Origin: Nitrosopumilus sp.
Lineage (GTDB): Archaea; Thermoproteota; Nitrososphaeria; Nitrososphaerales; Nitrosopumilaceae
Length of the DNA: 64,000 bases
Direction of reading: 5' to 3'
Assembly (NCBI GenBank): GCA_965205215.1
Contig: OZ242041.1
Location: forward strand, 1,280,001 to 1,344,000
Positions 38,678 to 54,737 of this stretch are shown one piece after another (positions within the stretch are counted from its first letter, which is position 1; each line of letters begins with the position of its first letter). Position numbers and translations under genes: made by a program. The notes under the pieces were generated by a model that was given only the letters and a program-made list of their open reading frames with translations, was not told where the DNA came from and did not search any database.

Positions 38678-39733
38678 TCAGCTGCCTTCTCTGGGCGGTG
38701 GCGCAGCCGCGTCGGGTTGGGTGGCCGTCTCCTCCTCCTCCTCCAGCCAGCACATGGCGTACCCGGTATTGGTCTCGAACTTTGGCGGGGGCGTGGTGCA
38801 CTTTTCCATGGCGTACGGGCACCTGTCGATGAACCTGCACTGTCTTGGCTCCTCGAAGAGCGCGGGCGGCACTCCTGCTATGTAGCTTGGCGGCCCGCCC
38901 CGCATCGTGGGTATCGACTTTAGAAGCCCCTGCGTGTACGGGTGCCTCGGGTTCTCGTACACTTCCTGCAGGCTGCCAAACTCCACTATCTGGCCGCCGT
39001 ACATTATGCCCACCACGTCTGCAATCTCTGAGAGGACTGCCAGGTCGTGGGTTATCAGTATAAACGACATGCCCTCGTCTGACTTGAGCGACTTTAGCAG
39101 CGATATTACCTGGGCCTGCACCAGCACGTCGAGGGCGGTGGTCGGCTCGTCGGCGATGACCAGCTCGGGCTTTAGCAAGAGCGCCATCGCAATGACCACG
39201 CGCTGCTTCATACCCCCGCTCAGCTCGTGCGGGTACCTGGACAGCACGGACTCTGAGAGGTTGACCTCCCTGACTGCGCGCGATATGGCCTCGTCCGCGT
39301 CACCGTCGTACCCGTGCCTTGAGAGCACTTCTGAGAACTGTTCGCGTATCGTAAAGACCGGGTCAAGGGAGTTCATGGCCCCCTGGAATATCATCGCGAT
39401 GCGCTTCCACCGAAAATCCGCGTCAAACCCGGACTCTGGCATCTCGAGTATGGACTCGCCGCCGCACACTATCCTGCCTGACGTCTCGACTGCGTCGGGA
39501 TCGAACATCCTCATGACTGCAAGCCCCAGGGTGCTCTTGCCGCAGGCGCTCTCCCCTGCAATCCCGAGGGTCTGCCCTTTTTTCAGCTCAAAGTCCACGT
39601 CGTGCACGGCGTGCACCATATTTCTGCCGCCCCTGGCACCGCCCCCCCTACCGTGCGTGCGGTATGCCGCAGAAAGCCCGTCCACGCGTATGAGGCTGCC
39701 CCCGTCCCCCGCATCGCGATCCGAGCCGCCCAT
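38678..39733 (-). CDS. Oligopeptide/dipeptide ABC transporter ATP-binding protein (DppD/OppD type)
   Basis: GESACGKST, YPHELSGGMKQR, IADEPTTALD, HPYTQGL, C-terminal C.F..RC. Confidence 0.93.
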   Translation of the reverse strand: MGGSDRDAGDGGSLIRVDGLSAAYRTHGRGGGARGGRNMVHAVHDVDFELKKGQTLGIAGESACGKSTLGLAVMRMFDPDAVETSGRIVCGGESILEMPESGFDADFRWKRIAMIFQGAMNSLDPVFTIREQFSEVLSRHGYDGDADEAISRAVREVNLSESVLSRYPHELSGGMKQRVVIAMALLLKPELVIADEPTTALDVLVQAQVISLLKSLKSDEGMSFILITHDLAVLSEIADVVGIMYGGQIVEFGSLQEVYENPRHPYTQGLLKSIPTMRGGPPSYIAGVPPALFEEPRQCRFIDRCPYAMEKCTTPPPKFETNTGYAMCWLEEEEETATQPDAAAPPPREGS

Positions 39734-39838
39734 TATGCGGTGGGCACGACCAATGGATATAAACAGCACGTAGGCAGCCTCACAACATGCAGCGCCACTG
39801 CCGCGCCGACCTGCGGGGGAACACGGGGTGACGATGCG

Positions 39839-41116
39839 GTGACGTTTGTGCGGACGCATGACATTGCGGACCTAGGCGAGGACATGATGGGCCGGACCGT
39901 CACGATATCCGGCTGGATTGAGGACTACCGGAAGATGGCAAAGCTCTCCTTTGCCACGCTCCGCGACGTAACCGGCCTCGCGCAGATAGTGATAAAGGAC
40001 GAAAACGTGCCGGAGCTCAGCCGCCAGAGCGTCATATCGGTGTCCGGCACCATACAGGAGACCAGGGCCAGGGACCATTCCTTTGAGGTTCTGGCCGACG
40101 AGATCGTGGTGCTTGCCCGGGCGTCCCACCCGCTGCCAGTCGACCCACTCGGGCGCCTTGAGAGCAACATTGACACCCGGCTCAACCACCGGGCGCTGGA
40201 CATGAGGAACCAGCGTACCGCGTCCATATTCAAGATGAGGCACCACGCACTGCAGGCGCTCCGCGGCGCGCTGACGTCAGAAAGGTTCATCGAGATTACG
40301 ACCCCCAAGATAATCGGGAGCGCGAGCGAGGGCGGGGCCAACCTCTTCTCACTGGAATACTTTGGAAAGACGGCATACCTTGCGCAGAGCCCGCAGCTCT
40401 ACAAGGAGCAGATGACCATAGGGCTGCAGAGGGTGTTTGAGATATCTAACTTTTACAGGGCCGAGAACTCGCACACGGGCCGCCACCTGACCGAGTTCAC
40501 CAGCGTGGACATAGAGGCGGCCTTCATGGACTATGACGACGTGATGGGGGTGCTTGAGAGGCTTGTCGCGTCGACGTGCAAACAGGTGGCGTCGGACTGC
40601 GTCGAGGAGCAGGACGTGATAGACTGCGTCGTGCCCACGCCGGAGGCGCCGTTTGAGAGGGTGACCTACGAGCAGTGCGTCGGAGAGCTGCGGGAGTGCG
40701 GCCAAGAGGTGGAGTTTGGTGACGACCTGCTCGACTCGCACCTCAGGCTGATAGGGCTCAACCATCCGGGCTTTTTCTTTCTGACCGACTGGCCGATAAA
40801 GCTAAAGCCGTTCTACATAAGGGAGAAGGACGGGCACCCGGAACTGTCGCGCTCGTTTGACCTGCAGTACGGGTACCTCGAGCTGTCCTCCGGCGGCACC
40901 AGGCTGCACGACCCGGAGACGCTGAGGTCCAGGCTTGCAGAGCAGGGGCTGGATCCCGCGCAGTTTGAGGATCATCTGGAGTCGTTTGGGTGGGGGATGC
41001 CCCCACACTCAGGCTGGGGCATGGGGCTTGACAGGCTCATGGCGGTGATGACCGGCGTGGACAATGTCCGCGAGGTCGTGCTGTACCCTAGGGATCCGGA
41101 CCGGCTGTCGCCGTGA
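39839..41116 (+). CDS. aspS: Aspartyl-tRNA synthetase (archaeal, probably non-discriminating)
   Basis: (M)TFVRTH, SEGGANLF, LAQSPQLYKE, RAENS.T.RHL.EF, GMPPHSGWG.GLDR. Confidence 0.95.
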   Translation: MTFVRTHDIADLGEDMMGRTVTISGWIEDYRKMAKLSFATLRDVTGLAQIVIKDENVPELSRQSVISVSGTIQETRARDHSFEVLADEIVVLARASHPLPVDPLGRLESNIDTRLNHRALDMRNQRTASIFKMRHHALQALRGALTSERFIEITTPKIIGSASEGGANLFSLEYFGKTAYLAQSPQLYKEQMTIGLQRVFEISNFYRAENSHTGRHLTEFTSVDIEAAFMDYDDVMGVLERLVASTCKQVASDCVEEQDVIDCVVPTPEAPFERVTYEQCVGELRECGQEVEFGDDLLDSHLRLIGLNHPGFFFLTDWPIKLKPFYIREKDGHPELSRSFDLQYGYLELSSGGTRLHDPETLRSRLAEQGLDPAQFEDHLESFGWGMPPHSGWGMGLDRLMAVMTGVDNVREVVLYPRDPDRLSP

Positions 41117-41287: not shown

Positions 41288-44200
41288 ATGATCGCTTTTC
41301 ATGGGGCCCGCTCCATCCTTGCGTTCCCTAACACCCTGCATTCTGATCGCCCAAACCCGATATCGATTGCCTCTGTGGTCATACTTGCACTTGTCGCGTG
41401 CATGACTCCCGCATTTGCAGTAGATGGAAATCCCCAGGATCGGCTCAGGTTTGACCAGGACGGCATTGACGCACAGGTTCAAAAAGCTGTGACGGATGCA
41501 TTGGCGCTGTACTCTCAGAACGGCCGGGGCGCGTTTGACATGATTACAAACGCGAGGAGTTCTGATTCCGATGCGCCAATCCCGCTTGTCATAAGCAGCA
41601 GCACCCTGAAGGTTGTAGCGCACGGGGCGGGCCCTCTATACGTGGGGCAAATGCCGCTTGATGTCGCAGACACGTCAGTTGATCAGATCCGAGCCAGTCT
41701 GGAGCGTGACGGGATGATCTGGATCGAGCACATGGAGACAAACCCTGAAAACGGCCAGCCGCAGGCAAAGCGGGCCTTGCTGCACCTGCATGATGACGGA
41801 TACATATTCTCTGCCGGTTACTTTTTGGACGACTTTGAGGTTCAGCTTTTGATAGAGGACGTGGTGGTCCAGTACGAGACGTACGGGATCGGCGCCTTTG
41901 ACATGATAACCCCCAGTGAGCCCGTTGTGACTGACGATCTGTATCCGTTTGTGATAGACATCGAAACCTGGACCCGGGTGGCAGACGGCGTGGTGCCCGA
42001 CAGGGTGGGAAAGGCAGAGGGCATCCTGAACACTGCGGCCAGGTCAGTCGAAGATGTCCGCGCGGAACTGGAAACGACCGGTTCTGCGTGGGTGACATAT
42101 ACGTTTCACAACCCTGCCACGGACATAACGCAGCTCAAACTCTCTTGGCTCTATCTGCATGATGGCTATGTGTTTGGATCCGGCTACTATCCCCCCGATT
42201 CCCAGGTAAAATCACTGGTGGACTCTGCAATCATGACATACGAGGTACATGGAGCCGACGCCTTTGGGATGATGACGCCGGATGTGTTTGATCGACTGTC
42301 GACGCAGTCGAATTTCGTGCTGGACGCGGCAACCTTGGAGGTGCTGGCACACGGCAGGCTGCCCGCGCTGGTGGGCGAGCGCTTCGAGCAGCTTGAGGCG
42401 GCAGACAGGCCCCTGCGGGACATCATGGCCGAACTGCGAAGTGCGGGCGGAGCCGGAACCTGGGCATGGCACATGGACCTGAATCCCGCAACCCGGACCG
42501 ACCAGCTCACGCGCACGTACGTCGTGCTGCACGGCGACTACATATTTGGCGCAAGCCTCTCGCTGCCCGATATTCGGCTGCAGGCCGTGATTGACGACGC
42601 GCTCTACACGTACAGAAACGATCCTCAAAACGGGCTTGACATAATCACTTCTGGCGCGCTCAACAGACTGGACCTTTTTCCTGCAGTGAGAAACGAGACG
42701 CACATACTTGCGCACGGCGCAGTGCCCTTCTTGGTCGGGCCCCTCCCGCCGCACCTGAGGATAACGACGGGTGACGGGGGCGCATTTTCCGACGTTCCGG
42801 ACGGAACTACGTTTTGGACCGAGTTTGCGTTTTTCAACGCCAACACCGGAATAACGCAGATCAAGCGCGGCTGGACCCACTTTTATGACGGTTACACGTT
42901 TGTGGGCGCCTATACAATTGCAGACGCTGACACCCAGTCGGTGACCGATTACGCGCGGTTCATCTACGAGTCCAACAGAGCCAACGATGCATGGAGGGAT
43001 ATCATCACTCCTGACGCGCCCATCGTAACTGATGATCTGTATCCGTTTGTGATAGACATCGAAACCTGGACCCGGCTTGCAGACGGTGTCGTACCTGGCA
43101 GGGTGGATCTGCCCGAACGAATCCTGGACACTTCGGGAAGATCCGTGCGGGACGTGGTTGCAGATCTCAGAGAGACGGGCAGTGTGTGGCTGACATACAC
43201 GTTTCACAACCCTGCCACGGGAGTCGAGCAGCTAAAGCGCACGTATCTCCAGCTAAAAGACGGACTCGTGTTCGGCTCCGGCTATTACATACTTGATTCC
43301 GGCGTCCAGGCCGTGGTGTATGCCAACATAGTCGAGTACAACACCAATGGAAGGGATGCCGCGCTCGGGGCAATCGGCACAATACCCGAAAGGCCGATCA
43401 CTGCATACGCCTTTGCAGTTGACCCGCAGACCGGCACTACCGTGGCCCAGGGCGTGGATCCGGCCCTGACAGGCTCCCCCCTCCTCCCTGTTGCGGACTG
43501 GGACGCCATAACCGCGGTGCTCCCCACTGAGACGATTATGAGTACGATAACAGACGCGCCCGGCATGTGGGTAAACTACCAGCACACGAATCCCGTAACC
43601 GGCGAAATCGAGACCAAGCGCACATGGCTTGTCCTGCACGACGGGCTCGTGCTGGGTTCGGGATACTATGCGTCTGAGATTCCGGAGTCTGATGTCAAGT
43701 ATGCAGTCAGCAATGCGATCAACATCTACAACAACAACAAAGCCAACGGTGCGTGGGTGGACATAATCACGCCCGATCAGCCCGTCACAACCGACGCTCT
43801 GTATCCCTTTGTGATAGACGCCGACACCTGGACCCGGCTTGCAGACGGCGTGGTCCCCGACAGGGTGGGCCAGCCGGAGACCATTTTAGACACGTCCACC
43901 AGGTCGGTCGACGACGTCCTTGCGGAACTGGACGAGAAGGGCTCCCTGTGGGTCACCTACATATTCCACAATCCAGCCACGGGCATCGAGCAGCTGAAGC
44001 GCTCCTACCTGCAGCTGCACGACGGGCTCGTGTTCGGGTCCGGCTATTACATACTTGATTCCAGGGTACAGTCATTCGCGCACGGCCGCGTACTGGAATA
44101 CGAGCGCGACGGCAGGGCCGCGACGCTGGCGTCAATCAATACGGTTCCGCCCGTACCGATCACCCTGTATGCCTTTGCAGTTGACTCTGCAACCGGTATA

Positions 44201-45229
44201 ACGCTGGCTCAAAATGTTGATCCTGCTCGCGTGGGTGCGGCAACCGACTGGGATGTCATAACTTCCGCAATTCCAGAATCCGATGTCTTGGACAGCCTGA
44301 GCAGGGGGACGGGTGCGTGGGTGACCTACAATTACATATCCCCCGTAACAGGCAAACCGGAACTAAAGCACTCGTGGCTTGTACTGCATGATGGTCTGGT
44401 GTTTGGAGTGGGACACTACTCCTCTGACATTCCACAAACTGATGTAAGGTTCGAGGTTCGCGGTGCAATAGAAATTTACGAGAACAACAAAGCCAACGAC
44501 GCGTGGGTGGACATAATCACGCCCGATCAGCCCGTCACAACCGATGCGCTGTATCCCTTTGTGATAGACGCCGACACCTGGACCCGGCTTGCAGACGGCG
44601 TGGTCCCCGACAGGGTGGGCCAGCCGGAGACCATTTTAGACACGTCCACCAGGTCGGTCGACGACGTCCTTGCGGAACTGGACGAGAAGGGCTCCCTGTG
44701 GGTCACCTACATATTCCACAATCCAGCCACGGGCATCGAGCAGCTGAAGCGCTCCTACCTGCAGCTGCACGACGGGCTCGTGTTCGGGTCCGGCTATTAC
44801 GTGCTCGATACCGACGTGCAGTCACTGACACACAGCCGAGTACTGGAGTACTGGCGCGACGGCAGGGCGGCAATTGTCGAGTCGATCAGCATGATTCCGG
44901 ACGTGCCCGACTCCAAGTACTCTTTTGTCGTGGATTCCGCATCCGGCACGACCCTGGCGCAGGGCGTCAACTCCGCAAGCATAGGTGATACCCATGACTG
45001 GGACGCCATCGCCCTTGCAGTGCCTGCCCAAGGCCTCTTAGACGAATTACGCCGGGAAGCTGGCGCGTGGGTCGTCTATGATCACACGTCTCCCATAACG
45101 GGCGAGCTGGAGACCAAGCGCGCCTGGCTTGTATTCGATGACGGGCTGGTATTTGGAACCGGGTACTATTCATCGGACATACGCAACGAACTTGTGCCTG
45201 CAACGTACACTGCGCGAGTCTGCCGGTAG
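41288..45229 (+). CDS. Secreted 1313-aa protein with ten tandem single-Cache-like domains
   Basis: Signal peptide ending PAFA, then ten ~120-aa units ending in W..Y...NP.TG....K.......DG..FGSGYY. Confidence 0.85.
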   Translation: MIAFHGARSILAFPNTLHSDRPNPISIASVVILALVACMTPAFAVDGNPQDRLRFDQDGIDAQVQKAVTDALALYSQNGRGAFDMITNARSSDSDAPIPLVISSSTLKVVAHGAGPLYVGQMPLDVADTSVDQIRASLERDGMIWIEHMETNPENGQPQAKRALLHLHDDGYIFSAGYFLDDFEVQLLIEDVVVQYETYGIGAFDMITPSEPVVTDDLYPFVIDIETWTRVADGVVPDRVGKAEGILNTAARSVEDVRAELETTGSAWVTYTFHNPATDITQLKLSWLYLHDGYVFGSGYYPPDSQVKSLVDSAIMTYEVHGADAFGMMTPDVFDRLSTQSNFVLDAATLEVLAHGRLPALVGERFEQLEAADRPLRDIMAELRSAGGAGTWAWHMDLNPATRTDQLTRTYVVLHGDYIFGASLSLPDIRLQAVIDDALYTYRNDPQNGLDIITSGALNRLDLFPAVRNETHILAHGAVPFLVGPLPPHLRITTGDGGAFSDVPDGTTFWTEFAFFNANTGITQIKRGWTHFYDGYTFVGAYTIADADTQSVTDYARFIYESNRANDAWRDIITPDAPIVTDDLYPFVIDIETWTRLADGVVPGRVDLPERILDTSGRSVRDVVADLRETGSVWLTYTFHNPATGVEQLKRTYLQLKDGLVFGSGYYILDSGVQAVVYANIVEYNTNGRDAALGAIGTIPERPITAYAFAVDPQTGTTVAQGVDPALTGSPLLPVADWDAITAVLPTETIMSTITDAPGMWVNYQHTNPVTGEIETKRTWLVLHDGLVLGSGYYASEIPESDVKYAVSNAINIYNNNKANGAWVDIITPDQPVTTDALYPFVIDADTWTRLADGVVPDRVGQPETILDTSTRSVDDVLAELDEKGSLWVTYIFHNPATGIEQLKRSYLQLHDGLVFGSGYYILDSRVQSFAHGRVLEYERDGRAATLASINTVPPVPITLYAFAVDSATGITLAQNVDPARVGAATDWDVITSAIPESDVLDSLSRGTGAWVTYNYISPVTGKPELKHSWLVLHDGLVFGVGHYSSDIPQTDVRFEVRGAIEIYENNKANDAWVDIITPDQPVTTDALYPFVIDADTWTRLADGVVPDRVGQPETILDTSTRSVDDVLAELDEKGSLWVTYIFHNPATGIEQLKRSYLQLHDGLVFGSGYYVLDTDVQSLTHSRVLEYWRDGRAAIVESISMIPDVPDSKYSFVVDSASGTTLAQGVNSASIGDTHDWDAIALAVPAQGLLDELRREAGAWVVYDHTSPITGELETKRAWLVFDDGLVFGTGYYSSDIRNELVPATYTARVCR
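43751..44800. repeat. 300-bp direct repeat: 43751-44050 and 44501-44800
   Basis: By-eye alignment at offset 750 shows two mismatches, both synonymous. Confidence 0.9.
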
Positions 45230-45408
45230 TTGAGGTAATGGTATTTGGCAACGCAACAAAAACAAATTTCCGTGCCAAAATGCTCATGAAAAATTAACCA
45301 ATATTTTGGGCATGCTTGGTTTTGCCCGTAATCATATGGGGTGTAAATTCGTGGACAATGTTACGCATTAAAAGAAACCCTTGTTGATCGTACACACAGA
45401 TACACGGC

Positions 45409-45560
45409 ATGGCCAAACTGCCTGGGGAGAAATTCAGAGGCGTATCGGCAAGAGAAGGATCCCAAGGCGATAAAGAACCCGCTTGCAGTAAACATGGCAC
45501 TGCAAGAAGGAAAGCACGCAGCACGATCGCCGTACCTCAATCCCGCGGAACAATGCCGGA
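45409..45560 (+). mobile_element. Possible degenerate IS630-like transposase 5' remnant
   Basis: MAKLPGEK, then in a shifted frame EAYRQEKDPKAIKNPLAVNMAL, which recalls the Y..EKD N-terminus of IS630-type transposases. No DDE domain or inverted repeats seen. Confidence 0.3.
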
Positions 45561-45892
45561 ACAAGGGGAAGAGCGAAATAATGAATTCCGAATATCGCGA
45601 GATTTTCGTTGCCTTGCGCAACAAGACGTCCAAATATTACAGAACGACAAGGTTTACCCTTGACGTATACAGATATCTCGACAGGAAGACATCAGAATGT
45701 GCTGAGTTTTGGATCGCCATTATGCATTTCCGCCTACTGCAAGATCTGAGCTGATCAGAAGGTCTTGCAGACTCCCAGCCGCACGGGTCAAACATGCAGG
45801 CAGCTGGGGCAGTGAACCGGAGCCGTACCGTAGATAGGACGGGGAAGAGGTGATGACAAGCGTGAGTATTCCAACTGCAGGCAAGCTTGGCT

Positions 45893-46847
45893 TCATGTCC
45901 TGCTCCTGATCAGCTCCTGCAGCTCCGCGGGCAGGCTGCCGTGCTGGTTTTCATACCTTTTTATCATGTCCTGCGTGTCCTGCTCATCGAATTTGTCTTG
46001 GATCATGTTCCCTACAATGCCTCTCAAATCGTCTTGCCTGTTCATCTCTTGAAAAAACTCCATATGGGACTCGACATCCTCAAGATCTGGCAGTGTATCT
46101 TTATGAAGCTGCAGAATCTGCTCGCGCAGCGTCTCAAAATACTCGTACAGGGATTGGCGCCACGGGTCAAGTACTATCTTGCAGAAGTGCGAGTTCGAAT
46201 AACTTGCAATGATGTCTTTATAGTTGAATATGGAAAATACACTGCTGTTGTTCTCATTAAAACAGGACAAGCGGTATGGCTCCTTGTCAGTCCTTTCGCC
46301 GGTACACGAATCAATGTGAAACCACGTTGATGCGTACCGGCCATTGCCGTCTGCTGCGCTCAGTCCGTAGTGGATGTTGCTAAGCACGCGGTCACGCTCA
46401 TCTATGATATACATCTCAATCTCGTATTGGGAATATTTCTTTGCAGAGTCCAAAGTTTTCCGTCTGCGAAATTTTTTGCATGTGCAGGGGTATTCTCTGC
46501 TCAAAGGCGCAGACTGACGACGGCTCCACGCCGAGCTTTTCTGCCCTGGTGTCTGGATCATCAAACGGATATACATCAATCAGGCCCACACTTGAGATTT
46601 CGAGTCCCATGTGGGAAAAGGATGCCTCCTTCAGCTTCTCCTCCATGGACCTTTTCGAATCCTCAAACTTTTGCATGTCGCCTGCCATCTGGTGCCCTTT
46701 TGACTCCTCGTTGATCTGGACCAGCTCGCGGGAGTGCTTTTCAATCGAGACTGCCCTTGGGGACTCCTCGGGGCTGTCCTGGATTAGGAACAACACGGCA
46801 GAGACCAGCAGCGCCATGGCCGCTATCGTGCCAAGTCCGGACTTCAT
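45893..46847 (-). pseudogene. Exported hypothetical protein with a frameshift near 46445
   Basis: ORF 46416-46847 (signal anchor ...SQTENFGL) continues naturally as AKKYSQYEIE... in the frame of ORF 45893-46579. Confidence 0.65.
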
Positions 46848-47002
46848 TTTTCTACCCCCGCAAACGGAATTGAGATCCCTTCGTGCATTGCAAGGGTGTA
46901 AACATACAACGAATAGATTCCGGGCATGGATGTGAAGAAGGGCAGGTCAAGGACCACAAACGGCAGGACTGCAGTTACCGTAATCCTGTATCTAGTCTTC
47001 AT
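46844..47002 (-). CDS. 52-aa hydrophobic peptide (possibly a gene remnant)
   Basis: MKTRYRITVTAVLPFVVL; overlaps both neighbours in operon-like fashion. Confidence 0.4.
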   Translation of the reverse strand: MKTRYRITVTAVLPFVVLDLPFFTSMPGIYSLYVYTLAMHEGISIPFAGVEK

Positions 47003-52607: not shown

Positions 52608-54737
52608 TTGGACAAGGTTGTGGCAGACACAAGCGTCGTGATAAGCGGACAGCTTGCATCCCAGATTGAATCCGGCTCGGTACGCTCCGTTGAGGTGATA
52701 ATTCCGCAGGCAGTGGTCGACGAGCTGCAGTCCCAGGCCTCGTCCGGGCGCGGACAGGGATTCGTGGGACTACAGAGGCTTGACCACCTCCGCGAGATGG
52801 CCGGACAGTTCGGGCTTGAGGTGTCCCACAGGGGCCAGCACGTCTCGTCTGCTGACATAGACCTAGCCGGGTCAGGGCGCATAGACGCGATAATAACCGA
52901 CGTGGCAAGGGACGAGGGCGCCACGCTCTACACGTCTGACAAGGTGCAGCACTTGGCCGCCAAGTCCCAGGGGATCCCGGCCGTCTTTCTGAGGGACGAC
53001 GCCGCCCGCGGGCCCTCCGAGGAGGACCTGGAGTTTCTGCGGTTCTTTGATTCTGATACGATGTCCGTCCACCTAAAGGAGAGGCAGCCGCCCCTTGCAA
53101 AGAGGGGCAGGCCCGGCGAGTTCAAGCTGGTGGAGATTCCGTCTGACCCGCTTGACCGGCAATACCTTGAGACGCTGTCCTCGCAGATAATTGACGCCGT
53201 ACACGCCACGGAACAGAGCACGGTTGAGATCTCCATGGAGGGGGCCACAGTGGTGCAGCACGGGGACTATCGCATTGCAATGACGCGCCCCCCCTTCTCC
53301 GAGTCCTTCGAGGTTACGATCGTGCATCCGACGACGAAGATGTCCCTGTCTGACTACGACGTGTCAGAGGCCCTCACGAAGAGGCTCAGCGGGATGGCAG
53401 AGGGCATCGTGATTGCGGGGCCGCCCGGCTCCGGGAAGAGCACGCTTGCCTCCAGCCTGGGGAACTTTTACCACCAGCAGGGCCAGATAGTAAAGACGTT
53501 CGAGTCGCCAAGGGACCTGCAGGTGGACTCGGGCGTCACGCAGTACAGCAAGCTTGAGGGCAGCTTTGAGAACACGGCTGACATACTGCTGCTCGTGCGG
53601 CCCGACTATACCATATTTGACGAGGTGCGCCGCAGGGAGGACTTTGAGACGTTTGCGGATCTGAGGATGACCGGTGTCGGAATGGTCGGCGTGGTGCACG
53701 CAAACTCGCCCATCGACGCCATACAGCGGTTCATCGGCAAGATAGAGCTTGGCATGATCCCAAACGTGCTTGACACGGTGATCTTCGTCAGGGCCGGCAG
53801 GATAGACACCGTGTACGACCTCCGGCTGGAGGTAAAGGTGCCGTCGGGCATGACCGAGTCGGACCTTGCGAGGCCCGTTATAGTGGTGAAGGACCTTGAG
53901 CGCAATCGCGCGGCATACGAGGTGTACACGTTTGGCGAGGAGAACGTGATAGTGCCGATATCGCCGGACAAGGCCGGCGGGAAGAGCCGCGGGGGGGTCT
54001 ACAGGCTGGCCTCCGAGAAGGTGCTTGAGGTGGTAAGAAAGTACGACAGGCGCGCAGAGGTGGAGTTCGCGTCCGAGGACAGGGCCAGAATTATTGTATC
54101 AAAAAAGCACAAGGCCCGCATAATAGGCAAGGGAGGCTCCAAGATAGAGCAGCTCCAGGACCACCTCGGCGTCCACCTTGACGTCCGGACCCGGGAGGAG
54201 ATGCAAGAGAGCCGGGAGGCGGCAGGCCTGGATGCGCCGCTCGAAGACGGCGATGCGGGAGGCCGTTACGGCGCGTCGGATACCGAGTATGAGGATCTCA
54301 ACGGCGTTGACGGGGGCAGCTACAACGGCGGCGTCGATTTCAATGGCAGCGGCAACAACAACAGCAGCAGCGGAAATGATGACGATGGCGATGATGATGA
54401 TGGTTATGGCAGCGCCGCCGACTACGACGACTACCGCTCCGGCCGCGAACGCCGCCCGTCGCGCTCTTCTGGGAGGCGCCGTAGGCGCGGTTCTGACGCC
54501 GCCGCTGCCGAGCTGAAGTTCTCATTCTCAAGCAACCGCAATCTGATCCTCATAGACGTGGGCCGAAAGCATCCCTCTAGAAACGTAGAGATTGTGGGCC
54601 GCGACGGCAGGCAGATTGCGACCGGGTGGACGAACAAAAAGGGCGTCGTAAAGATCTCGACGCGCGCGCCGGGGGGCCGCGCCATACTTGACACCGACTT
54701 GCCAGAACGCGATATTGTGGTAAGGCTGGCCGACTGA
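52608..54737 (+). CDS. PIN-domain ATPase with KH domain (PINA-like)
   Basis: VADTSV PIN domain, GPPGSGKST, VRPDYTIFDEVR, IIGKGG KH motif. Confidence 0.9.
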   Translation: MDKVVADTSVVISGQLASQIESGSVRSVEVIIPQAVVDELQSQASSGRGQGFVGLQRLDHLREMAGQFGLEVSHRGQHVSSADIDLAGSGRIDAIITDVARDEGATLYTSDKVQHLAAKSQGIPAVFLRDDAARGPSEEDLEFLRFFDSDTMSVHLKERQPPLAKRGRPGEFKLVEIPSDPLDRQYLETLSSQIIDAVHATEQSTVEISMEGATVVQHGDYRIAMTRPPFSESFEVTIVHPTTKMSLSDYDVSEALTKRLSGMAEGIVIAGPPGSGKSTLASSLGNFYHQQGQIVKTFESPRDLQVDSGVTQYSKLEGSFENTADILLLVRPDYTIFDEVRRREDFETFADLRMTGVGMVGVVHANSPIDAIQRFIGKIELGMIPNVLDTVIFVRAGRIDTVYDLRLEVKVPSGMTESDLARPVIVVKDLERNRAAYEVYTFGEENVIVPISPDKAGGKSRGGVYRLASEKVLEVVRKYDRRAEVEFASEDRARIIVSKKHKARIIGKGGSKIEQLQDHLGVHLDVRTREEMQESREAAGLDAPLEDGDAGGRYGASDTEYEDLNGVDGGSYNGGVDFNGSGNNNSSSGNDDDGDDDDGYGSAADYDDYRSGRERRPSRSSGRRRRRGSDAAAAELKFSFSSNRNLILIDVGRKHPSRNVEIVGRDGRQIATGWTNKKGVVKISTRAPGGRAILDTDLPERDIVVRLAD

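Follow-up and report, generated by a model that had tools for sequence, protein, structure and literature searches.

In a 64,000-nucleotide stretch of DNA from Nitrosopumilus sp. (NCBI GenBank assembly GCA_965205215.1, contig OZ242041.1, positions 1,280,001 to 1,344,000 of the forward strand; the whole stretch is referred to below as the window), one gene encodes a 1313-amino-acid protein that consists, apart from a short leader and a short tail, of ten tandem repeat units with the predicted fold of Cache sensor domains. This array was described earlier in a sequence-only reading (i.e. made by a model from the letters and their open reading frames (ORFs), without database searches) as a secreted chain of ten Cache-like domains without an output domain, and the present analysis follows up that description. 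The parts of the gene are listed below with their positions in the window, followed by the strand and, in brackets, the amino acids (aa) of the protein.

41288..45229, plus strand: whole coding sequence, ATG start, 1313 aa plus stop
41288..41419, plus strand: N-terminal leader (aa 1-44), with the sole hydrophobic segment (approximately aa 21-48), a lipobox-like ALVAC (Cys38) and AFA↓VD
41459..41827, plus strand: unit 1 (aa 58-180), His type, divergent
41828..42196, plus strand: unit 2 (aa 181-303), class A (Asp type)
42197..42568, plus strand: unit 3 (aa 304-427), His type, divergent
42569..42934, plus strand: unit 4 (aa 428-549), His type, most divergent; same helix and strand order when modelled, at lower pLDDT
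42935..43294, plus strand: unit 5 (aa 550-669), class A (Asp type)
43295..43675, plus strand: unit 6 (aa 670-796), class B (Gln type)
43676..44056, plus strand: unit 7 (aa 797-923), class A
44057..44425, plus strand: unit 8 (aa 924-1046), class B
44426..44806, plus strand: unit 9 (aa 1047-1173), class A, 91% identical to unit 7
44807..45175, plus strand: unit 10 (aa 1174-1296), class B
45176..45226, plus strand: C-terminal tail of 17 aa (aa 1297-1313), ending in ...ARVCR

On the Kyte-Doolittle scale, scanned at a threshold of 1.6 in steps of 19-aa windows, the whole protein has a single transmembrane (TM)-like segment, with window starts at residues 21-30 and nothing past residue ~48. The leader is therefore probably a signal peptide, in which AFA↓VD would be the signal-peptidase site, and the leaders of related proteins resemble it. 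The remainder (residues 45-1313) is acidic, with an isoelectric point of 4.4 and 177 Asp plus Glu versus 84 Lys plus Arg. Self-BLAST in chunks returned a regular ladder of internal matches (E as low as 1e-79), and MAFFT alignment together with a unit HMM delimited ten units of 120-127 residues each, which follow one another without linkers over residues 58-1296. The proposed signal peptide and the ten repeats of ~120 aa were thus recovered, and the two repeat classes that had been proposed are real by pairwise identity, being 59-91% within class A (units 2, 5, 7 and 9) and 46-56% within class B (units 6, 8 and 10). Units 1, 3 and 4 are divergent (18-40% identity to other units), while units 7+8 and units 9+10 form a super-repeat of ~250 aa with 84-90% identity in chunks of 129-130 aa. 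Scans of the protein with Pfam and NCBIfam found no kinase, methyl-accepting chemotaxis protein (MCP) or cyclase families; the NCBIfam scan gave nothing meaningful at all, and Pfam found no solute-binding-protein (SBP) family either. The hydropathy and family scans therefore agree with the claim that the protein has neither a second TM helix nor one of these output domains.

The whole protein scores above the Pfam gathering cut-offs of two Cache families, i.e. dCache_2 (53.5 bits, cut-off 26.5) and sCache_2 (48.5 bits, cut-off 25, E 1.2e-12). These scores are the sum of many weak matches, and the match to dCache_2 spans only positions 131-297 of the 298 in that profile. Because none of the ten units reaches the Pfam cut-off when scanned singly, the assignment of the individual units to Cache rests on predicted structure. 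A model of units 7+8, built on 37 aligned unit pairs, has a pLDDT of 91.0, and every unit in it starts with an N-terminal helix of its own, after which come two strands, a helix and three strands. This is the arrangement of the sCache_2 fold (an N-terminal helix plus a PAS-like five-stranded sheet with inserted helices), and a Foldseek search with the model returned PAS and Cache structures. In the models the evidence that the units are complete sCache_2-type domains is clear, and the protein is read as a row of single-Cache units rather than of double-Cache modules. In the PDB sequence set, no Cache chain was found with a unit-pair profile, a profile of 98 single units or the whole protein, the matches being at chance level (E 0.5-0.9). 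The Cache assignment of the sequence-only reading is thus supported by the PAS/Cache-like fold of the model, and at the level of sequence by the whole-protein score; in the repeat-by-repeat profile match that it proposed as a check, all units stay below the cut-off. A comparison with the Protein Atlas was set aside and kept as a lead only, since it returned only Cache-only bacterial clusters (334-575 aa, score 0.93) with the recognition under the reliability mark.

In the sCache_2 domain of the chemoreceptor PscD, the carboxylate of the ligand is described in PMC5062169 as receiving hydrogen bonds from Tyr90, His103, Tyr143 and Lys156 and as being sandwiched by Trp92 and Trp145. As no residue-level alignment to PscD was obtained from sequence searches, these residues were equated with positions of the unit by motif and spacing, i.e. 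the four donors with positions 43, 57, 95 and 108, and the two Trp with positions 45 and 97. The resulting offsets (46-48) are consistent along the domain and fit the strand positions, both in the model and in those given for PscD in the same paper. Positions 43, 57, 95 and 108 are therefore the putative equivalents of the carboxylate-binding residues. In a set of 98 non-redundant units, Tyr occupies position 43 in 75 and position 95 in 76, Lys occupies position 108 in 83, and position 57 is divided over His (45), Gln (29) and Asp (21). Along the present protein the residues at position 57 are H,D,H,H,D,Q,D,Q,D,Q, and Tyr43, Tyr95 and Lys108 are all kept in seven of the ten units (2 and 5-10).

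The order of the units at position 57 was compared over 70 proteins, and the pattern described here is that of the undisrupted forms with 6-16 units. These begin with a head of four N-terminal units (HDHH, HHHH or variants), after which D-Q pairs follow. Forms with six units read HHHH-DQ or a close variant (with H-Q as the final pair in several), and those with eight units HHHH-DQDQ, while the 12-, 14- and 16-unit forms read HDHH-(DQ)4, HDHH-(DQ)5 and HDHH-(DQ)6; the present protein, with HDHH-(DQ)3, falls in the same series. The combination of a conserved four-unit head with repeated D-Q pairs indicates that arrays grow by the addition of such pairs. In nearly every case the D and Q units retain Tyr43, Tyr95 and Lys108, which means that the pocket-equivalent residues are kept in exactly those units that multiply.

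A search of 1.84 billion cluster representatives with the unit profile gave 1868 proteins at E<=1e-3, of which 214 at E<=1e-30. In the 232 relatives examined the number of units runs from 1 to 16, some entries being fragments. Above five units even counts dominate (6 units in 48 proteins, 8 in 38, 10 in 5, 12 in 4, 14 in 3 and 16 in 2), and odd counts are rarer (7 units in 6 proteins, 9 in 2 and 11 in 1). Relatives with 6-16 units are 42-85% identical, and the named ones are labelled Cenarchaeum sp., Thaumarchaeota archaeon or Nitrosopumilus sp. metagenome-assembled genomes. The majority of the relatives (162 of the 232) consist of a leader and units only. The other 70 have extra regions, defined as a stretch of >150 aa ahead of the first unit, one of >60 aa behind the last or a gap of >60 aa, and all of these were scanned with Pfam. 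None of the 70 carries a HisKA, HATPase, MCPsignal, GGDEF, EAL, HAMP or cyclase family. Instead, SBP domains far outnumber every other fusion partner, as they occur in 18 of the 70 (12 with SBP_bac_3 and 6 with Peripla_BP_6/ANF_receptor, SBP_bac_5 being present as well in three of the latter). The further fusions comprise a vanadium-chloroperoxidase-like domain (3), the 5'-nucleotidase C-terminal domain (2), DUF285 repeats (2), Bact_surface_Ig-like (2), SdrD_B (2), and single cases of Laminin_G_3 plus Ig, SIMPL, collagen, SLH and a plastocyanin-like domain; ten of the 70 gave no family at the thresholds used.

The genome itself, a single contig of 2,098,239 bases (60.3% G+C) that is rated 95% complete, carries five arrays, with 10, 10, 10, 4 and 4 units. 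The two four-unit paralogs end in SBP-type domains, i.e. NMT1 (2.4e-45) and SBP_bac_3 (5.8e-16), and are located as follows.

G000:C1:1577105-1579894, plus strand: four-unit paralog with NMT1 (locus L007)
G000:C1:1528290-1531022, minus strand: four-unit paralog with SBP_bac_3 (locus L005)

The NMT1-fused paralog is separated by 750 bp from a ten-unit paralog that runs on the opposite strand. A DDE transposase gene (L024:16614-17813, minus strand, and L026:7239-8336, plus strand) sits directly beside both of the ten-unit arrays other than the present one. No signalling gene adjoins the present gene or any of its four paralogs, and MCPsignal has no match in this genome. The protein is therefore not a truncated receptor, since the number of units in its relatives varies between 1 and 16, no signalling output is found among the 70 that have extra regions and the genome is without an MCP domain. 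The earlier description of a stand-alone multi-Cache protein thus holds across the family. Its further proposal of a multivalent ligand binder gains from the SBP fusions (in the 18 relatives and the two paralogs) and from the conserved positions that are the putative equivalents of the pocket.

The protein contains two cysteines, namely Cys38 in the lipobox-like motif of the leader and Cys1312 in the terminal ...VCR (Cys1312-Arg1313, at 45221-45226), and no CXXCH. A C-terminal [V/I/M/A]-Cys-Arg-stop is found in 30 of the 3537 six-frame ORFs of at least 150 aa in the genome. A strongly hydrophobic N-terminus is present in 19 of these 30, compared to 341 of the 3537 overall (odds ratio 17, Fisher p 6e-13), a background that includes spurious ORFs. 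The Cys-Arg ORFs include giants of 1932-3896 aa. Among the 232 relatives the Cys-Arg end occurs in 14, of which 12 have at least 10 units. It is possible that this end is an undescribed surface-attachment tag, and the sequence features taken together suggest that the array is exported and retained at the cell surface. The term 'secreted', as used in the sequence-only reading, is therefore apt as far as the export signal-like leader is concerned, whereas free secretion is not borne out. An archaeosortase-type signal (PGF-CTERM or PEFG-CTERM) is absent, in that the tail is 17 aa long, is not hydrophobic, ends in Cys-Arg and has no NCBIfam match, and a literature search for thaumarchaeal C-terminal tags found no paper on a Cys-Arg tag. 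Readthrough past the Cys-Arg end was considered and rejected, because the stop codons are mixed and nothing hydrophobic or TM-like follows the stop.

Following these results, the array is best read, at about even confidence, as an exported and probably surface-retained, non-signalling, multivalent binder of small solutes, composed of ten sCache_2-type domains without linkers. Sec export would bring it to the outer side of the membrane in a sponge-associated member of the Nitrosopumilaceae, where units 2 and 5-10 would each keep an sCache_2-type small-molecule pocket with the Tyr/Tyr/Lys carboxylate positions. With three pocket variants at the His-equivalent position, in the fixed order H-D-H-H-(D-Q)x3, the array could bind two or three kinds of solute, each in many copies, of which carboxylate-bearing ones are likely (e.g. 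host amino-acid-like or organic-acid compounds). The solutes would then be held or concentrated at the surface for uptake, much as by an SBP, with no signal being passed on, and the length of the array (i.e. its capacity) may have been tuned in evolution via the gain and loss of D-Q pairs. A more specific form of this proposal is tentative and rather doubtful as a whole, namely that of a non-signalling capture array with up to 16 H, D and Q pockets, held by the Cys-Arg tag and possibly also by the N-terminal lipobox Cys, which would concentrate small nitrogen or carbon compounds from the host for a sponge symbiont, with a capacity set by D-Q pairs.

Several observations weigh against the capture of solutes. 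Unit 3 is consistently without Tyr43, Tyr95 and Lys108, and units 1 and 4 keep them in part. The mapping to PscD is by motif and spacing, with no unit aligned to a solved Cache structure, and the conserved Tyr, Trp and Lys could serve folding instead of binding. The best single-unit scores (dCache_2 17.8 bits for unit 7 and sCache_2 16.5 bits for unit 10) lie under the Pfam cut-offs, and the pTM values of 0.57 (units 7+8) and 0.54 (a second model) mean that the geometry between units is not confidently predicted. The adhesin-like or structural fusions (DUF285, Laminin_G_3/Ig, collagen and SLH) and those to enzymes would fit a surface scaffold equally well. Finally, no transporter gene adjoins this gene or its four paralogs, which leaves a hand-off for uptake without support from gene context.

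The main competitor is a structural or adhesive surface fibre, in which the Cache fold would serve as a rigid bead, the array would stick out from the cell, span the space below the S-layer or adhere to the sponge matrix or host cells, and the pocket would bind a host glycan or peptide epitope, or nothing. The lack of linkers between units and the variable array length (6-16 units) are in line with such a fibre, as are the DUF285/BspA-like, Laminin_G_3 plus Ig, collagen, SLH, Bact_surface_Ig-like and SdrD_B fusions counted above, the C-terminal TM segment with a basic tail in a few relatives (P0152, P0187 and P0207) and the sharing of the Cys-Arg end with giant signal-peptide ORFs of the same genome. 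Moreover, host recognition has been proposed for the Cache domains of sponge Thaumarchaeota in Haber et al. 2021 (PMC7848895), and the gene is present in a run labelled as a sponge metagenome. Purely structural repeats would not be expected, however, to keep a class-specific order of residues at a pocket-equivalent position over forms of 6-16 units at 42-85% identity, and it is SBP domains, rather than adhesin-like ones, that are the commonest fusion partner, so that a fibre is considered unlikely, though it has to be taken seriously. An improbable alternative is a sensor in trans, where the array would bind its ligand and then dock on a separate membrane kinase, transporter or other transducer. 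There is precedent for its components, since SBPs are reported to signal by docking on dCache domains in HptA-HptS (PMC8050422) and a stand-alone Cache gene is described beside a ligand-gated channel gene in Rhodopseudomonas (PMC549065). The present genome also has HATPase_c matches at six places, five of which are over the cut-off, but the distance to the nearest array exceeds 700 kb for each of them, and non-kinase GHKL ATPases may be among them. None of the five arrays has a kinase, channel or transporter gene as its neighbour, MCP is missing from the genome, and ten units per transducer, together with growth by pairs of units, are a poor fit to a stoichiometric sensor.

That the gene would be a truncated or decaying receptor, or an artefact of misassembled repeats, is very improbable indeed. 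It is true that short-read contigs break in repeats, and that the contigs of one run contain a joint from 42976 to 44499, which has a near-identical counterpart in a second run. The frame is nevertheless open over 1313 codons in a single-contig genome, a ten-unit orthologue with 93% identity is found at the syntenic locus of another assembly, and near-identical contigs occur in 4 runs from 4 studies. For a decayed receptor, one would also have to account for hundreds of intact relatives, none of which carried an output domain where they were examined.

The array differs in several respects from the systems it resembles. One of these is formed by the sCache_2 domains of chemoreceptors (PF17200; PscD-SD 5G4Y, Adeh_3718 4K08 and the V. 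parahaemolyticus MCP 2QHK/4EXO), the Pfam cut-off of which the whole array passes. By our reading of the alignment, motifs shared with these domains are Y-x-F/W in strand 1, A-H, W-x-x-Y-x-F/W-x-x-P, K-x-x-Y/W and G-x-G-Y-Y. The sCache_2 domains are normally single, lie between two TM helices and are accompanied by an output, whereas the array has ten in tandem, with no second TM helix and no output. The divergence is also large, given that no single unit passes Pfam and no PDB sequence is matched, and the putative equivalent of His103 of PscD is Asp or Gln in seven of the ten units. In the founding survey of Cache domains, Upadhyay et al. 2016, these are stated to have been found only in proteins with output signalling domains. 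The likeness to dCache_2 (PF08269) consists of the top whole-protein Pfam score and the unlike D-Q pairs in the C-terminal half of the array, but dCache_2 has two PAS-like modules on one long N-terminal helix, whereas in the model each unit of the array has a helix of its own. The stand-alone sCache_heme class (DUF3365/Tll0287) is likewise exported and without output domain or signalling neighbours; its members have a single domain with covalent c-type haem bound at CXXCH, as opposed to ten units, two cysteines and no CXXCH in the array. According to the preprint 10.64898/2026.02.01.703092, stand-alone Cache proteins are highly unusual, with >90% of Cache domains being fused to signalling modules. 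With SBPs (SBP_bac_3, Peripla_BP_6, SBP_bac_5 and NMT1), to which relatives and paralogs are fused, the array shares an extracytoplasmic location, the absence of signalling and the proposed capture of small solutes, but SBPs are two-lobed Venus flytraps, whereas the array is PAS-like, has no SBP domain itself and has no adjacent transporter genes.

The work of Haber et al. concerns the same lineage and habitat. It reports three Cache Pfams as enriched in some sponge-associated Thaumarchaeota and suggests a role in surface recognition; as far as its available text goes, it gives Pfam domain counts and describes no tandem arrays, missing output, unit order or SBP fusions (its supplementary tables may list the genes). 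A search for literature on stand-alone or tandem Cache proteins turned up no more than these counts, the preprint on sCache_heme and a single stand-alone gene that was noted in 2004. The enrichment of Cache domains in sponge Thaumarchaeota is thus published, while in these searches the tandem architecture, the family-wide missing output, the SBP fusions and the unit order were not found in print.

The surroundings of the gene agree with the statement that no signalling gene is adjacent, as an aspartyl-tRNA synthetase (AspRS) lies upstream and four ORFs without a Pfam match, a VTT-domain membrane protein and DNA glycosylases lie downstream. The AspRS ORF (39602-41116, plus strand) probably has its true start ~77-80 codons later, as same-genus relatives align from residue ~77-80 onwards. 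The ORFs downstream of the array belong to no Pfam family, with one weak PHROG match of unknown function only, and no tRNA genes are present in the 36-50 kb region of the window. Further downstream, the ORF at 52608-54737 (plus strand) has PIN, P-loop ATPase and KH domains together, a combination typical of archaea. Directly after the gene lies a variable stretch.

45250..46916, no strand: variable low-GC (~0.50) stretch of 1.67 kb

This stretch is replaced by 407 bp in a 94%-identical syntenic locus (L020), and it is given as context of the gene. In nine loci from the same genus, leuB or a small ORF comes after AspRS instead of an array, which places the array gene at a synteny breakpoint. 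In the window, leuB and the small ORF stand on the other side of an ABC ATPase gene, which indicates a local rearrangement. The G+C content of the array gene (0.57-0.58) is slightly under that of its upstream neighbours (0.61).

With respect to taxonomic spread, for which the sequence-only reading proposed a comparison of host-associated and free-living organisms, the family was, in the archaeal genomes searched, confined to some genera of one ammonia-oxidiser family that includes sponge symbionts. Matches were found in 29 of the 201 sampled genomes of the family Nitrosopumilaceae. Within the genus of the window, two of the 16 other genomes match, and weakly, while in another genus (g18) all ten match, nine of them strongly (E below 1e-200). 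Of 251 sampled genomes of the phylum seven had matches, all in the same family, compared to none of the 216 genomes from 41 other families. The array is 61-64% identical to those of g18, and AspRS is 68-71% identical to the same genomes and 72-80% within its own genus, from which transfer and loss cannot be told apart. The patchy spread, the breakpoint and the transposases are circumstantial evidence that fits transfer among co-resident symbionts, and they fit differential loss equally well.

One of the sequencing runs connects the gene to sponges. A total of 24 runs was listed for the gene, none of which is RNA. The run labelled as a sponge metagenome contains 86% of the sampled words of the gene, which its contigs match at high identity, and the same holds for three further runs from three other studies. 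All four runs consist of short-read contigs that break inside repeats. In the contigs of one run, the joint from 42976 to 44499 has 10 other letters in between and amounts to a net loss of 1512 nt (504 codons, or ~four units), and in the second run 42976 is joined to 44495 with 6 letters in between. This was not used as an indication of repeat-number polymorphism, because the short side of the joint is 38 letters at 90% likeness and it may come from a paralog, a repeat, an assembly artefact or a shorter allele.

A tandem family of 6-16 complete sCache_2 units without output would show a second use of this fold, i.e. for the capture of solutes or for display at the surface. Weight is lent to this by the repeated fusion to four kinds of SBP domain and by the conserved order of the pocket variants. 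The Cys-Arg C-terminus that some of these proteins share may furthermore point to an undescribed route of surface attachment in these archaea. Since, in the archaeal genomes searched, these proteins are limited to certain genera within a single family of ammonia oxidisers, the array is a candidate for how symbionts tap the metabolites of their host.

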